From: Candidatus Woesebacteria bacterium
Lineage (GTDB): Bacteria > Patescibacteriota > Microgenomatia > UBA1400 > UBA1396
Assembly: GCA_963749595.1 (NCBI GenBank)
Contig: CAVVNJ010000008.1
Location: 3,389-67,388 of the forward strand
Reading direction: 5' to 3'
Length of the DNA stretch: 64,000 nt
The notes below the pieces were generated by a model. That model saw only the letters and a program-made list of their open reading frames with translations, did not search any database and had not been told where the DNA came from. Positions 48,728 through 57,179 of this stretch are shown piece after piece; the first letter of the stretch is position 1, and each line of letters begins with the position of its first letter. A program made the position numbers and the translations under genes.

Positions 48728-48882
48728 CATCAGTTGAAAAGTTCTGATAGACCCGTCTAATACCGCTGAATGGGCTGATGGTGCCGACGAATATTTCCTC
48801 AAGGGCGAACTTCTTGAAACCACAGCCGTGTAAGTATCAAATTCCCCTGGTATAAGACGATCAAACCGCCTCGATAGTGTGG

Positions 48883-49191
48883 TTATTTCCCGATTTTGTT
48901 GTGCCGTGGCTGAAGGCGACGAATCTCGGTTGCTTCAAAAGTTTCGGCTTCGGCAATCGTGGCGCAAGCGCAGTAGCCAAAATGCGTTACTCCTTCGAAG
49001 AAATCCTCACGCAAATGTTGGAGCAGTCGCCCGCGCATACCTTCTTGACCAGTGGCCTTCCCCACATACAAAACATCAAGATTTCCATTTGCGGCAATGC
49101 AGCCGCAGTAATACACACCGATAGCCGAAGACTTCCAGCCTCCGACGACTCCTTGGCTATAGTTATAATGTCCTTGGTAGTTTTGTACCAT
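48883..49191 (-). CDS. GIY-YIG domain nuclease-like protein (102 aa)
   Basis: GVYYCG...LYVGKATGQEGMRGRLLQH...E...N pattern. Confidence 0.6.
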   Translation of the reverse strand: MVQNYQGHYNYSQGVVGGWKSSAIGVYYCGCIAANGNLDVLYVGKATGQEGMRGRLLQHLREDFFEGVTHFGYCACATIAEAETFEATEIRRLQPRHNKIGK

Positions 49192-49316
49192 AGTGCCTCC
49201 TTAAGGCTAGTTTGTATTTCCGAAGGTTGAAAATCGTTTCGATTGCCTTTGGTTATCAATACGATACAACGCTCCAAGGGTTGCTGTCAACTGGTTGATC
49301 GTGGTAAAGTATCAAT

Positions 49317-49640
49317 ATGATTTATGAAGAAATTGGCGCCAAGATAAAAAAACTTCGTGAAGACAGAGGGTTGACCAAACAAGCGCTGGCGCAAGAGCTG
49401 GGTTATGAGTCTGACACAGCAATTCATCTCATTGAGGCTGGCAAGCGGAAGATTTCACTTGAGAGGCTCAAAATCATCGCCAACTATTTTAAAGTCTCTA
49501 TCTCAGATTTTGTTTCTGAAGATGTAGGGAAAGAAGACTTAGACATCATGACTGCGCTTCGATCAGACGAACAGCTTGACGAACGCGATGTGGCCCAAAT
49601 CTCAACTTTTATTGACTTCATTAAACAGCAAGGTAAATAA
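49317..49640 (+). CDS. XRE-family HTH transcriptional regulator
   Basis: IGAKIKKLREDRGLTKQALAQELGYESDTAIHLIEAGKRKISLERLKIIANYF. Confidence 0.85.
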   Translation: MIYEEIGAKIKKLREDRGLTKQALAQELGYESDTAIHLIEAGKRKISLERLKIIANYFKVSISDFVSEDVGKEDLDIMTALRSDEQLDERDVAQISTFIDFIKQQGK

Positions 49641-49641
49641 G

Positions 49642-50196
49642 ATGGATGACGACTCAACTGACATTGAGGCCGATGAGATCATAAAAGACCACAAGTCCAA
49701 AATCCTCTACATCAAAAAAAGAGCTCGAAAGTTGATTGATGACTCGAAGGCGACTGTTCCTGTTCAAATTCATACTATTGTCCAGTATCTGACCCAGGAT
49801 CAGTCGTATAAAATCTTTCCCAAGGCGATGGATCTGAAAGAAAAATTCTCAGGACAAATTGTAAGAAGTGGTAATGCGGCGGGGATCATTTATAACTCAA
49901 CTCATTCAGTTGTTCGGCAGCGATTCACATTTGCTCACGAGCTGGGCCACCTCATCCTTGAGCATGATTTGAGGGTGCAAACATACAATGAAATGATCAA
50001 CCTTAAGACAAAATCGCCGATCGAACGTGAAGCGAATCTCTTTGCAGCAGAACTGCTGATGCCCAAAACTCTCGTGAGTGATTACCTCAAAAAACACCAG
50101 GTAAAAACCGTTAAGGAATTGGCAGAGATATTTAATGTAAGTGAAGAAGCGATGTGGTACAAAATCACAGACGAAAATCTGATTCGCTATATGTGA
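49642..50196 (+). CDS. ImmA/IrrE family metallopeptidase
   Basis: HEXXH in FAHELGHLILEH plus a downstream E...EANLFAAELLMP. ATG at 49642 immediately follows the XRE stop. Confidence 0.8.
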   Translation: MDDDSTDIEADEIIKDHKSKILYIKKRARKLIDDSKATVPVQIHTIVQYLTQDQSYKIFPKAMDLKEKFSGQIVRSGNAAGIIYNSTHSVVRQRFTFAHELGHLILEHDLRVQTYNEMINLKTKSPIEREANLFAAELLMPKTLVSDYLKKHQVKTVKELAEIFNVSEEAMWYKITDENLIRYM

Positions 50197-51482
50197 TTGG
50201 TTATCAACTGTTTTGCTCTCAAGATAAACTTCGTTCTCACCATCCCCAACACCTGCTGTCGATCCTCCGCTGATCCAGTTTTCAGAATGTGTTTGAGATA
50301 TTCTCTTGCCATGGAGTCATCGTTAGGTTGTACGGCAGAAAGTTCCATTTCAGTGAGATTTCCTGAAAGATATTCTTGGTGAAGTACTTGTGACCTCAAC
50401 TTGTGGAACCGCTCGATGTCTGCCCTGATGTGTTTGGTGAGCAGACCTTGGTTAATTTTAATCTCACTGATGTGTGCGAGAAGTTGCTGGATCAGATCGG
50501 CTTCCGTGATGTAGGGTTCGTCACAATCGTAGTCCACCGATCTCGCGCAGTGGTAGTAGATATGTTTGGTGAACCCACCACCCTTCAGCTTTTTGTATTT
50601 TTCTTCTGCCGTCACCCCTCCGCCACAGGAACCACAGATACAAAGCGTCTTGAATGGGAATTGTTGTTTGTGCCAGTTTTTTGGTGGAACGAGCAATTGC
50701 TTTTGGACTTTATCAAAAAGTTCTTTTGTAACGAGGGGTTCATGTGTGCCTTTGTACCATTCATCGCCATACTGGAACTGGCCGTAATAAAACGGATTTT
50801 TGAGCGTGGCATAGATGCGACTTAGTGATAACCGTTTACCACTTTTCGTAGTGAAATCTACGGTTTCTAGCCACTTCTTTAGTGTCCTGCCGCTGTGCCC
50901 TTGCTCGGCTACTCTGCGGAATAACTCCTTTACGACCAGCGAACGATCAGGATCGGGGACTACCTCACTAATACGGTTGTTGCGCAGAACATTGAGGTAA
51001 CCAAGCGGTGCCACCCCCGGCCGAACCCCCATTTCACACTTTGCCCTGAGGCCTCGTTTGACGTTCACACCTCGGTTATCGTTCTCCAGCTTGGCTTGTG
51101 AGCAGAGAATCATGAGAAGAAACTTTTCATTAGGACTGTTAGCGAAGCTTTGCGAATAGGTTTGGATCTTTAGGAGTTTGCCCTGATCCATGAGGTCAAC
51201 CAGCGACCCTAAGTCTCCAGCATTGCGACTCAGTCTATCAGGAGCCCAGGTCAGGATGGCATTAAACTTGTCACCCCTAATTTCATTAAGTATTTCTACA
51301 AACATAGGTCGTGATCCAGAAGCTTTAGCAGAGTGGCTTTCCCGTTTCGTTTCTACGATGGCTATATGTTCACGCTCCGCCAGCGTCAGCATTTCTTTAA
51401 TTTGCGAGTCAATGGACATGGTTTGGCGTTCGTCAGACTCAGAAGATTTGCGGGCATAGAGGCAGTAACGAAGCTCGTTCAC
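50187..51482 (-). CDS. large serine recombinase
   Basis: N-terminal resolvase domain YARKSSESDERQTMSIDSQ (catalytic Ser region), a recombinase domain, and a zinc-ribbon CGSCGG...YYHC. 431 aa. Confidence 0.85.
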   Translation of the reverse strand: MNELRYCLYARKSSESDERQTMSIDSQIKEMLTLAEREHIAIVETKRESHSAKASGSRPMFVEILNEIRGDKFNAILTWAPDRLSRNAGDLGSLVDLMDQGKLLKIQTYSQSFANSPNEKFLLMILCSQAKLENDNRGVNVKRGLRAKCEMGVRPGVAPLGYLNVLRNNRISEVVPDPDRSLVVKELFRRVAEQGHSGRTLKKWLETVDFTTKSGKRLSLSRIYATLKNPFYYGQFQYGDEWYKGTHEPLVTKELFDKVQKQLLVPPKNWHKQQFPFKTLCICGSCGGGVTAEEKYKKLKGGGFTKHIYYHCARSVDYDCDEPYITEADLIQQLLAHISEIKINQGLLTKHIRADIERFHKLRSQVLHQEYLSGNLTEMELSAVQPNDDSMAREYLKHILKTGSAEDRQQVLGMVRTKFILRAKQLITNHI

Positions 51483-55778: not shown

Positions 55779-55831
55779 TACTTCATACTACATGGAATTT
55801 CTTACTAACATATTCAATTCCCTTTACCCAT

Positions 55832-56164
55832 TCAGAGATTCCCTCCAAAAATCTCAGACGCAAATTTTCTCCAAAAGTGCGTGCAAGACGCAACATATTC
55901 TCTTGGGCTTGTTTTATCATCTCTTGATATGACTTCGAGGAGGCCATCAGCCGTTCGAGCTATTTCTAGAACTGGTTCGATAAAGTTTTGTTGTATTTTC
56001 GCCACAACATCGAATAGACCAGCAAAAGGATTAAATACAGGCGGAGAAAAAGAGTGCGCTAAGCTCGTGGCACATTCAACCAGATTCTGTTGCGCAGCCC
56101 CAGCTACTTGCGATATGACGGACACAGAAATGTGTTCTTTTGGTGTGACTTGATCCATTAACAA
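55832..56164 (-). CDS. hypothetical protein (110 aa)
   Basis: ORF co-directional with the element operon. No motif recognised. Confidence 0.35.
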   Translation of the reverse strand: MLMDQVTPKEHISVSVISQVAGAAQQNLVECATSLAHSFSPPVFNPFAGLFDVVAKIQQNFIEPVLEIARTADGLLEVISRDDKTSPREYVASCTHFWRKFASEIFGGNL

Positions 56165-56258
56165 TCACAATATCATATTTGCTATATACCCAAAAGAAGC
56201 ACAAACACACGCCCTTTCGAGCGTATGCGTTAACGAATGACTTTTGAGTTTGTCGTCG

Positions 56259-56847
56259 TTAGTTTTCGAGTTTGATTTCAGTCGCTGTGGCGAAAAGTCC
56301 GCCTCGCACTTCCAGGACCAATCCTGTTGCATCCTTAGGGTATGTCGAAGACGATCTCTCCGTGACGCTTAGACTTGGTTGTACTTGCTGGAGGAAGAGG
56401 TCAACTTGTCCTTGAGCCAGTCCTTTGGCGATTTGGCCGTCACTGCTCCGCTCGAAAGTTCTCCCTTGATTGTCTCGGAGTTTAATCATTGAGGAGTCGA
56501 TGGTTTTGGTCTCTTTACCAGTGTTCTCAATCTTGAGTGTAACTACCTTGAAGACTACCTTGGGCATCTTTGCGGGTGTAGGAGTTCCCCAGGCTCTTAT
56601 ATTCTTTTACGCCAGTTACGGTGAAGGCGAGGTCACTACTTTGCGCTACTTCACCGATCTTGGCAGTGACTTTCTCATCCTTTTTACCCTGTTCCTGGTT
56701 TTGGCCTCCTGAGGATGAAGTAGAGGTGGATGATTTACTCCCTCCTGATCCTCCAATGACCATAATGAGCACGATGACGACCAAGATTCCGGTAATAACC
56801 TTGTGTCGCATGAACCAATTGCCTTTTTTCTCCTTTTGTTCGGACAT
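56259..56847 (-). pseudogene. DUF4352-like secreted/membrane-anchored protein, one frameshift near 56560
   Basis: The N-terminal TM segment plus Ser/Gly linker ORF (56527..56847) and the beta-rich ORF (56259..56567, VVFKVVTLKIENTGKET) overlap in different frames. Confidence 0.55.
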
Positions 56848-56951
56848 ATTCCTCCTTTTAGTTTGTAACTGTCAAGACTATACCGCTGCTCTGATTATAA
56901 AGCTACAAGGAGAAGCTGTATAGACCGAGGGAATCCCTAGACAATTCCCTC

Positions 56952-57179
56952 ATGGGAACTTCTCTTAAAACCACCGATTTACACCGAGATTTTGGCAAAC
57001 GCATTCAAGAACTGCGAAAAGAGCGCGGTATGACACAAGAGGATCTTGCAGGAGATGTTGGAGTAGACCGCAGCTACATGGGTTTTTTGGAAAGAGGTGA
57101 GAAAAATGCCACTCTAGACAAAATTGGGAAAATTGCTAAAGCACTACATATTAGGCTCAAAGAGTTGTTTGACTTCTAA
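56952..57179 (+). CDS. XRE-family HTH regulator (75 aa)
   Basis: FGKRIQELRKERGMTQEDLAGDVGVDRSYMGFLERGEKNATLDKIGKIAKAL. Confidence 0.85.
   Translation: MGTSLKTTDLHRDFGKRIQELRKERGMTQEDLAGDVGVDRSYMGFLERGEKNATLDKIGKIAKALHIRLKELFDF

Follow-up and report, generated by a model that had tools for sequence, protein, structure and literature searches.

How does an integrated element come to carry a phage-type DNA packaging motor, an integration enzyme and a set of repressors, and no gene for any part of a virion? This question is raised by an island of ~8.6 kb that adjoins a tRNA-Ser gene in a stretch of 64,000 nucleotides from Candidatus Woesebacteria bacterium (assembly GCA_963749595.1, contig CAVVNJ010000008.1, positions 3,389 to 67,388), which is referred to here in its full length as the window and supplies the numbering used below. 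Bacteria of the candidate phyla radiation (CPR, or Patescibacteria) account for much of the diversity of bacteria, their tiny genomes reportedly contain few prophages, and to our knowledge almost nothing is known about gene exchange among them. An initial annotation of the window had proposed that the island is a phage satellite or else what is left of a prophage. The analysis of related loci firmly supports the conclusion that the island is intact and belongs to a large, conserved family of CPR islands that lack capsid genes and encode their own terminase. As to how the island works, we see about an even chance that it is a phage-satellite-like integrative island which brings a whole terminase of its own and is packaged into the capsids of another phage.

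The open reading frames (ORFs) of the window were annotated from an ORF listing together with scans against Pfam and PHROG families, and the regulators were also scanned with PADLOC. The island extends from ~48729 to ~57200-57380, and its features, together with those found at its two edges, are as follows.

48643-48728, plus strand: tRNA-Ser(gct) gene, called by ARAGORN and matched by the Rfam tRNA model with 54.9 bits
48729-48845, strand not assigned: conserved junction segment, called M here, of ~115 nt, which includes AAGTTCTGATAGACCCGTC at 48739-48757
48883-49191, minus strand: ORF of 102 aa with no function assigned, taken from the ORF listing and also called as a gene on an independent 5.5-kb contig
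49317-49640, plus strand: XRE-family helix-turn-helix (HTH) regulator, CapH/ImmR-like (Pfam HTH_3, 1.3e-13; PADLOC capH, 1.2e-14)
49642-50196, plus strand: ImmA/IrrE-type M78 metallopeptidase, CapP-like (Peptidase_M78, 6.5e-23; PADLOC capP, 1e-33; called as a 184-aa gene on an independent contig)
50187-51482, minus strand: large serine recombinase (integrase), last gene of the operon (Resolvase, Recombinase and Zn_ribbon_recom; phrog_95 integrase, 4.6e-59)
51479-51667, minus strand: ORF of 62 aa between TerL and the recombinase, no family match in Pfam or PHROGs
51707-53218, minus strand: TerL, the large terminase subunit, intact (phrog_38, 5.2e-80; Pfam Terminase_6C)
53215-53688, minus strand: small HTH protein resembling TerS, the small terminase subunit (PHROG TerS families 309, 4044, 4102 and 1482, 8e-10 to 1e-4)
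53649-54977, minus strand: fusion of ParB_N (2e-12) and N6_N4_Mtase (3.8e-22), the ParB-methyltransferase (phrog_498, 1.4e-79)
55026-55778, minus strand: protein of 250 aa with a C-terminal MerR/Xis-type HTH (MerR_1, 6.3e-12; HTH_17, 5e-4)
55832-56164, minus strand: ORF of 110 aa, first gene of the operon, no family match in Pfam or PHROGs
56259-56847, minus strand: gene for a DUF4352 secreted or surface protein (3e-9), split by a frameshift
56952-57179, plus strand: XRE regulator of 75 aa, divergent from the operon and belonging to an XRE family found in 35 loci
57379-58312, minus strand: small insertion sequence (IS) element with 27-nt imperfect inverted repeats (57379-57405 and 58286-58312) and matches to rve_3, rve and HTH_23

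This gene content and order agree with what the initial annotation had described, and its statement that virion genes are absent was upheld as well, since the ORFs of the interval have no match to portal, capsid, tail or lysis families in Pfam or PHROGs. The stop codon of the TerS-like gene overlaps the start of TerL, and in Pfam the TerS-like protein gives only sub-threshold matches, to HTH_Tnp_1_2 and Sf6_terminase. The three domains of the recombinase (PF00239, PF07508 and PF13408) all score above their cut-offs, and its translation contains the catalytic-serine motif YARKSS.

Relatives of the island's terminase are numerous. Homologues of TerL number more than 3,494 at E <= 1e-10, those at E <= 1e-30 amount to 460 representatives of a library clustered at 50% identity, and at least 576 species genomes contained a relative when one genome per species was scanned with a profile; scans of genome and viral contigs with the single TerL sequence gave no match, and a profile based on an alignment was required. 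Among the matches listed, the informatively named TerL-bearing records are nearly all Patescibacteria of many lineages (Woese-, Shapiro-, Levyi-, Berkel-, Doudna-, Dojka-, Kuenen-, Falkow-, Moran-, Portnoy-, Peri- and Peregrinibacteria, Saccharimonadia and Parcubacteria), and the closest TerL proteins are from Woesebacteria metagenome-assembled genomes (MAGs). The named relatives of the Lon protease encoded in the window are 'Patescibacteria group bacterium' only, so both proteins bear out the earlier supposition that the host is a CPR-type bacterium, probably one of the Microgenomates. Many carrier MAG records bear titles such as 'uncultured Gammaproteobacteria', 'Pseudomonadales', 'Bdellovibrionales' or 'Eubacteriales' (L012, L014, L015, L022, L023 and others), and these titles look unreliable given the otherwise CPR-only distribution. 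IMG/VR contributed 48 further loci with this TerL family. Three viral-classed contigs from that source (55, 39 and 25.5 kb) each contain two different terminase modules (L097/L112, L115/L116 and L113/L124, respectively), so that one genome can hold more than one element.

From these sources 134 loci (designated L001 and onwards) were fetched, their ORFs were called and the encoded proteins were clustered into families. Only four families are near-universal, namely the ParB-methyltransferase or methyltransferase (130 loci), TerL (130), the TerS-like protein (110) and the serine recombinase (94), and they occur in a constant order: a regulator-like gene, the ParB-methyltransferase, sometimes a second methyltransferase, TerS, TerL, none to several cargo genes and the recombinase. 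The order ParB-methyltransferase, TerS, TerL, optional cargo and recombinase recurs in 130 loci, whose TerL proteins are 38-86% identical to that of the window. A TerS-like homologue lies directly upstream of TerL in 110 of the 134 loci, and in 87 of 130 loci TerL is followed downstream by a recombinase on the same strand; in 43 of those 87 the gap is less than 400 bp, and therefore leaves no room for capsid genes. Other copies hold cargo at this position, as in a Roizmanbacteria copy, where an AAA_5 ATPase and a diversity-generating retroelement (DGR) stand between TerL and the recombinase.

The absence of virion genes extends across this family. No portal, capsid, tail or lysis gene was found in any fetched locus within 10 kb on either side, the protein clusters of the 134 loci contain no recurrent structural or replication family, and independent gene calls with Pfam annotation give the same capsid-less picture. 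Where the recombinase does not follow TerL, 20 proteins of 263-914 aa encoded just downstream were considered as portal or capsid candidates; none matched a head, tail, connector or lysis PHROG, and they matched helicase, kinase, HNH, methyltransferase or transposase families instead.

These observations also bear on the idea that the island is a complete, minimal virus with capsid genes that have diverged beyond recognition. Several conserved unannotated ORFs upstream of the ParB-methyltransferase (cluster families 5, 12 and 19) could be cited in its favour, as could the 110-aa and 62-aa ORFs of the window, which lack a family match. The 62-aa ORF has homologues of 79 to 80 aa at the same position in L001, L002 and L007-L010. 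The 110-aa ORF shows weak tblastx similarity (28%) to the start of 371-aa proteins in L001 and L007, and may be the detached N-terminal part of such a homologue; the neighbouring 250-aa MerR-type protein aligns to residues 124-355 of the 371-aa positional counterparts in L001 and L009. A tailed-phage particle requires at least a portal and a capsid protein, however, and these do not fit the available space: the recombinase comes directly after TerL in 43 loci, the unannotated proteins measure 60-380 aa, vary between clades and bear HTH or winged-HTH signatures where any are detectable, and a compact copy (L144, ~7.4 kb from segment M to the distal XRE gene) holds nothing besides the recombinase, TerL, TerS, two methyltransferase genes, DUF4352, XRE and one extra ORF. 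A hidden set of capsid genes thus has little chance of being the answer.

The Walker A and B motifs of TerL (AFRGSAKTT and RPDLIICDDVED) and the acidic residues of its nuclease (D320, E386 and D454/D455) are invariant in an alignment of 32 homologues, and a further motif alignment shows the Walker motifs and the acidic nuclease residues to be invariant as well. An AlphaFold model (pLDDT, the predicted local distance difference test, of 75) has the two-domain fold of phage terminases. Its best fold matches in the PDB are PhiV-1, D6E, HK97 and T4 gp17 (full-length, E ~1e-13, 12-15% identity), Foldseek also matches it to TerL nuclease domains, and a sequence search of the PDB with TerL gave no match where the fold search succeeded. 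Among five close relatives, in which TerL is 96-98% identical and synonymous sites are near saturation (dS 0.8-2.0), the ratio of nonsynonymous to synonymous substitution (dN/dS) is 0.011-0.019 for TerL, 0.05-0.06 for TerS, 0.04-0.09 for the ParB-methyltransferase and 0.02-0.08 for the recombinase.

Some members of the TerL family depart from the form seen in the window. Tandem full-length paralogues that are 54-58% identical to each other were observed in L037, L047, L053, L057, L062, L070, L085, L091-L093, L095 and L096, which where informatively named belong to Saccharimonadia, Saccharimonadales, Saccharibacteria, Peribacteria and Peregrinibacteria; complementary loss of motifs between the two paralogues was ruled out, as an alignment shows all ATPase and nuclease motifs in both. 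In addition, a LAGLIDADG-type intein-like insert interrupts some of these proteins (P0378 and P0379), and others reach ~700 aa through a C-terminal extension of ~220 aa (P0244-P0246, P0256, P0274, P0283 and P0290) that has no Pfam match in the four that were scanned (P0244-P0246 and P0256).

The state of the terminase and its family context speak to the second proposal of the initial annotation, in which the island is the deletion remnant of an ordinary temperate phage, decaying after everything structural or lytic that once stood between TerL and the integrase had been lost in this lineage. In favour of such a history, all genes of the island are of phage type, two genes of the window copy are frameshift-split and an IS element abuts the region. 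The two signs by which the initial annotation would have recognised a remnant, namely a full-length prophage in related genomes and an inactivated terminase or recombinase, were nevertheless not seen: no relative carries a full prophage, and both proteins are intact and under strong purifying selection, with a TerL dN/dS of ~0.015 at dS 0.8-2.0 and every catalytic motif in place. The same capsid-less order recurs in 130 loci across TerL identities of 38-86% to the window copy and no structural family recurs with it, and the frameshifts are probably assembly errors, since flanking housekeeping genes show them too. A decaying prophage is very unlikely indeed.

The ladder of TerL identities (86/80/68/60/50%) parallels that of Lon (79/75/65/55%), and the GC content of the element core follows that of the flanks across loci, from 0.31 to 0.58; because of this GC tracking and the Lon-like ladder, a long residence in each host lineage seems indicated. 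Conservation of TerL at housekeeping level points to a conserved partner, be it a portal or something else. At the same time, modules have been exchanged between copies: L001 and L009 share 98% identity in TerL and 58% in the recombinase, and the window and L001 share 79% in TerL and 41% in the ParB-methyltransferase.

A domesticated system resembling a gene transfer agent (GTA), in which this module would be the packaging and integration part of a machine that serves the host and whose head and tail genes lie elsewhere in the chromosome, is one way to account for such conservation. Its support comes from the Lon-parallel ladder, from core GC that has ameliorated to each host and from the very wide spread across CPR bacteria. 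On the other hand, the module always comes together with a site-specific recombinase, with tRNA junctions and repressors and with cargo that varies, its parts are shuffled between copies (as in L001 and L009), two copies can share one contig and structural genes occur in no locus within 10 kb on either side, so that we consider a GTA-like role improbable.

The link to tRNA genes is systematic. A tRNA gene lies within 3.5 kb beyond the recombinase in 30 of the 60 loci with enough sequence there, and in all 30 its 3' end faces the element. These are 17 tRNA-Ser genes with five anticodons, nine tRNA-Gln, two tRNA-Asp, one tRNA-Tyr and one tRNA-Glu, and the type of target roughly tracks recombinase similarity. 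In the window the proximal junction is exact, with the 3' end of tRNA-Ser at 48728 and segment M beginning at 48729. Segment M also directly follows tRNA-Ser in L001 (cga) and L007 (tga), and in metagenome loci follows the act and gga genes too, while in L002 (gct) the junction motif lies ~150 nt downstream of the tRNA. Its 19-nt core, AAGTTCTGATAGACCCGTC, occurs once in the window, where none is expected by chance, and was found in 30 metagenome loci (L135-L164), in all of which except L151 it stands 10-11 nt after the 3' end of a real or degenerate tRNA-Ser; conservation extends over ~115 nt.

Segment M is read as the recombinase-side end of the element, that is, as a putative arm of the attachment (att) site. 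It contains a short palindrome just after GACCCGTC, whose sequence and register vary (ACCCATGAATGGGT, GCCTATTTAGGC, GGCTATTAAAAGCC) and which is a candidate recombinase site, promoter or terminator, or something else. As a structured RNA the segment found no backing, in that Rfam matches only the tRNA and RNAalifold predicts no pairs; a scan of viral contigs for the junction motif gave no matches, and a promoter and terminator scan gave no enrichment over shuffled sequence. Direct repeats flanking the element were found neither in the window nor in 27 of the 30 tRNA-linked loci. The repeat search gave a convincing result (34 nt) in L007 only, with matches of 13 to 17 nt in three other loci. 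L007 is also the one locus in which a distal junction was captured, and the scarcity of long flanking repeats elsewhere may fit a serine recombinase.

The L007 repeat is best read as the junction between tandem islands. In both L007 and L154 an internal junction is marked by a degenerate tRNA 3' fragment followed by segment M, and such fragments occur in several other metagenome loci; in L007 the internal junction bounds a 9.6-kb element. The order in L154 is tRNA-Ser, M, a 6.8-kb island with no recombinase, a degenerate tRNA fragment, M, an HNH gene, a LexA-like gene and the recombinase. We read these arrangements as tandem islands that arose by successive insertion at a tRNA 3' end, and the recombinase-less island of L154 may be mobilised in trans or may be left over from such accretion. 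That island (2251-9065) was observed to encode a sigma factor of ECF type, membrane proteins, an HlyD-like protein and a MacB-type ABC ATPase with its permease.

The regulatory genes of these islands are those of temperate elements. The window has an XRE/ImmA pair on the stretch from the tRNA junction to the recombinase, and another XRE gene that is divergent from the operon; across the 134 loci, an XRE family was found in 35 and a LexA/S24-type repressor family in 24, the latter divergent from the operon in most gene maps. To judge from their families, XRE/ImmA, XRE and LexA/S24 proteins are probably typical induction switches of temperate elements, and the M78 peptidase is likely to be an anti-repressor protease paired with its XRE neighbour. 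The XRE/ImmA pair had been described as a divergent switch; the pair itself is present and matches the CapH/CapP pair (HTH repressor adjoining M78 metallopeptidase) in PADLOC and Pfam, but the two genes are co-directional and divergent only from the 102-aa ORF. That ORF had been taken for a stand-alone GIY-YIG protein, an assignment that found no statistical support (best GIY_YIG_2 match E = 0.062, 13.7 bits against a cut-off of 22.4; no PHROG or PADLOC match), and it lacks conservation in relatives. The 250-aa MerR/Xis-type protein is, by inference from its domain, a candidate regulator or recombination directionality factor.

The distal XRE gene of relatives often heads defence cargo, for example a type I restriction-modification (RM) system in L002 and L144 or a helicase-nuclease in others. 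None of the defence models in PADLOC matches TerL, TerS or the recombinase. Genes of DGRs (an RVT_1 reverse transcriptase with bAvd) were noticed inside or beside elements, for example in L003-L006 at about 19000-20400; of the 134 loci, 13 contain the reverse transcriptase family and 11 that of Avd, and four of these are the same Roizmanbacteria element in four assemblies. The islands may thus be a vehicle for DGRs of CPR bacteria.

The distal boundary of the window copy is less sharp than the proximal one. The initial annotation had placed it at 57179, and similarity to L009, L001 and L002 does end there, at the stop codon of the distal XRE gene; this position is approximate only, with the IS element at 57379-58312 close by and no distal att site found. 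The IS element (HTH ORF 57924-58265 and rve-domain ORF 57381-57902, both minus strand) lies at or near the distal edge and does not belong to the conserved element. A pattern search for a partial tRNA on the distal side matched tRNA-Ser itself only, and a degenerate tRNA fragment there was no better than chance, with equally good scores from 179 of 200 shuffles.

The surroundings of the island change in composition from ~0.51-0.56 GC on the left through ~0.45 inside to ~0.38 on the right (1-48000 versus 58000-64000). In related loci, too, the flank on the tRNA side often has a higher GC content than the one distal to the recombinase. The flanks of the window island encode Lon, PNPase, RNase Y and PcrA. 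To the right of 58.4 kb the low-GC region encodes an rRNA adenine dimethylase family protein that scores below the ksgA cut-off, FolE, QueD, two APH-type kinases, a glycosyltransferase and a DegT aminotransferase, and it may represent cargo at the distal end, ordinary host DNA, a variable locus for surface sugars or the product of an assembly join. The folE-queD pair (59463-60451, ~6 kb from TerL) has a homologous counterpart in L045, a Woesebacteria locus (277-1298, ~9 kb from TerL), where the element sits at tRNA-Gln instead, and this shared neighbourhood could reflect coincidence, host synteny or cargo of 7-deazaguanine type.

Several genes of the window are interrupted. The DUF4352 gene, reported as frameshifted in the initial annotation, does switch frame near 56557-56606 when compared by tblastn with the intact L009 and L001 proteins (intact homologues have 194-208 aa). 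In the left flank an RNase J-like metallo-beta-lactamase gene, identified by eye, is split over three frames (46036-47694) and the PNPase gene over two (39603-41895), which suggests assembly indel errors or pseudogenes. Because these flanking housekeeping genes also look frameshifted, the DUF4352 frameshift is possibly an assembly error.

Taken together, packaging in the capsids of another phage is the simplest explanation for the island, because a complete TerS/TerL motor is held under strong constraint where no capsid genes are present; from this combination we infer that the element probably depends on a helper. The serine recombinase would insert the element at the 3' end of tRNA-Ser (or, in other clades, of tRNA-Gln), with the MerR/Xis-like protein as a possible directionality factor, and repressors would silence the operon until an inducing event such as DNA damage or infection by a phage. 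In the window this task would fall to XRE with the ImmA protease and to the distal XRE, and in many relatives to LexA/S24-type repressors instead. After induction, TerS would recognise a site on the element, and TerL would cut there and pump the DNA into procapsids of a co-resident or infecting CPR phage. The methyltransferase may pre-methylate the DNA against restriction in the next host, and the host would benefit from cargo such as RM systems, DGRs, transporters and surface proteins.

The part of the satellite proposal that was borne out is thus a capsid-less terminase island in a conserved family, whereas neither the helper phage nor a circular form that it implies was found, and several observations weigh against packaging by a helper. 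No helper was identified among 50,697 deposited phage genomes, in which the nearest TerL is 26% identical, every relative found in IMG/VR is again a capsid-less element, and no fetched contig has the terminal repeat of a circular assembly. The ORFs of the window element match no replication family in Pfam or PHROGs, in contrast to phage-inducible chromosomal islands (PICIs) and P4, which replicate before packaging. TerL diverges about as slowly as housekeeping Lon, which is unusual for a gene that tracks fast-evolving phage portals. In addition, two genes of the window copy are split by frameshifts that are possibly assembly errors, and its distal end has no defined edge.

Some of the same observations suit an alternative in which TerS and TerL do not fill capsids, and instead prepare the excised island, as a site-specific nuclease and translocase, for transfer independent of capsids (for example as linear DNA for natural transformation, or in vesicles) or interfere with the packaging of invading phages by mis-cutting or competition. 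Neither a helper nor a close phage relative of TerL was found, a replication module is lacking, the cargo is mostly defence (type I RM, helicase-nuclease, DGR and the CapH/CapP-like pair) and the extreme conservation of TerL suggests a constant partner rather than a changing portal. Yet ATPase and nuclease are fully conserved and TerS is kept, which makes up a complete packaging motor, no PADLOC model matches TerL, TerS or the recombinase, and we know of no precedent for a TerL that works without a portal. We therefore treat a capsid-independent role as a possibility of lesser weight, unlikely and still worth keeping in mind.

Beyond the packaging of the single island by a helper, a broader proposal can be put forward tentatively, namely that these islands form an unnamed, phylum-wide class of CPR elements. 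Such a class would be ancient and have co-diverged with its hosts, would combine a complete terminase and no capsid with large serine recombinases specialised on tRNA-Ser and tRNA-Gln, would either parasitise equally conserved CPR phages or transfer its DNA without a capsid of its own, and would be a main carrier of RM, DGR and surface genes.

If helper packaging is true, capsid-less islands of a single family, spread over hundreds of CPR species, would be a major route of gene flow and phage defence, with RM systems, DGRs, transporters and surface proteins as its cargo. The satellite concept would then widen to a whole packaging motor without shell or replication genes, and tRNA 3' ends would join the known targets of large serine integrases, which is relevant to genome-engineering tools. 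The partner of the conserved TerL, a portal or something else, is worth finding. In the literature, of which subscription papers were incompletely covered, no description of a CPR terminase-island family was found, and an earlier one may exist. Compared with the initial annotation, the analysis adds the large conserved family, the systematic tRNA adjacency and the lack of a replication module, the last of these unlike PICIs.

Comparison with known systems begins with the PICIs, such as the pathogenicity islands of Staphylococcus aureus (SaPIs). Like these, the CPR islands are small and site-specific, contain a repressor switch, combine packaging genes of phage type with cargo for accessory functions or defence, have no tail or lysis genes and presumably depend on the capsids of a helper. 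They also share with PICIs an integrase and a fixed attachment site, seen here as the recombinase at the element end and the tRNA 3' end in 30 of 30 cases. PICIs carry TerS only (or Rpp) and are not known to carry TerL, so that packaging uses the TerL of the helper, and have a primase or replication module with an origin and tyrosine integrases. The window family differs in combining TerS and TerL with a ParB-methyltransferase and a large serine recombinase, and the window copy has no recognisable replication genes.

Capsid-forming PICIs (cfPICIs) take only tails from their helper. They are reported to encode a TerS and TerL of their own, as the CPR family does (bioRxiv 10.1101/2022.09.08.507074). 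Unlike the CPR family, however, they encode capsid, protease, portal and head-tail connector, and neither the window nor any of the 130 related loci has one of these. Satellites of P4 type are recognised by an alpha primase-helicase, sid, psu and delta genes and a cos site; among the ORFs of the window element there is no match to a primase or helicase, and the hallmark genes are absent.

Temperate Caudoviricetes with large serine recombinases share the ParB-methyltransferase, TerS and TerL block, the domain architecture of the recombinase and a switch of CI/XRE type. Phages of this kind (phiC31, Bxb1, A118 and SPbeta types) have full structural, replication and lysis modules, and the usual targets of their integrases are ORFs and intergenic sites rather than the 3' ends of tRNA genes. 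The window family differs from them in the absence of portal, major capsid, tail and lysis genes, and the nearest deposited phage TerL is 26% identical. GTAs of the Rhodobacter capsulatus (RcGTA) type resemble the family in a strongly conserved terminase that is kept long-term in host chromosomes. GTAs have head and tail genes beside the terminase and are not known to have an integrase, att site or cargo; the CPR family is the opposite, with no head or tail genes and with a recombinase, a tRNA junction and cargo.

The tycheposons of Prochlorococcus carry cargo, a minority of them have large serine recombinases and some contain terS or a capsid gene (bioRxiv 10.1101/2020.12.28.424599). As in the CPR family, integration is at tRNA 3' ends, where in the CPR family degenerate tRNA fragments mark tandem islands. 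Most tycheposons, by contrast, use tyrosine recombinases, and many carry polymerases, primases and helicases (bioRxiv 10.1101/2020.12.28.424599). None is reported to have TerL, and their hosts belong to another phylum, in a comparison made by description. In its presumed way of working the CPR family therefore stands closest to PICIs and to PICI-like tycheposons, while it departs from what defines the PICI, cfPICI and P4-like families and joins instead a whole terminase, a large serine recombinase and a tRNA junction in one capsid-less island.

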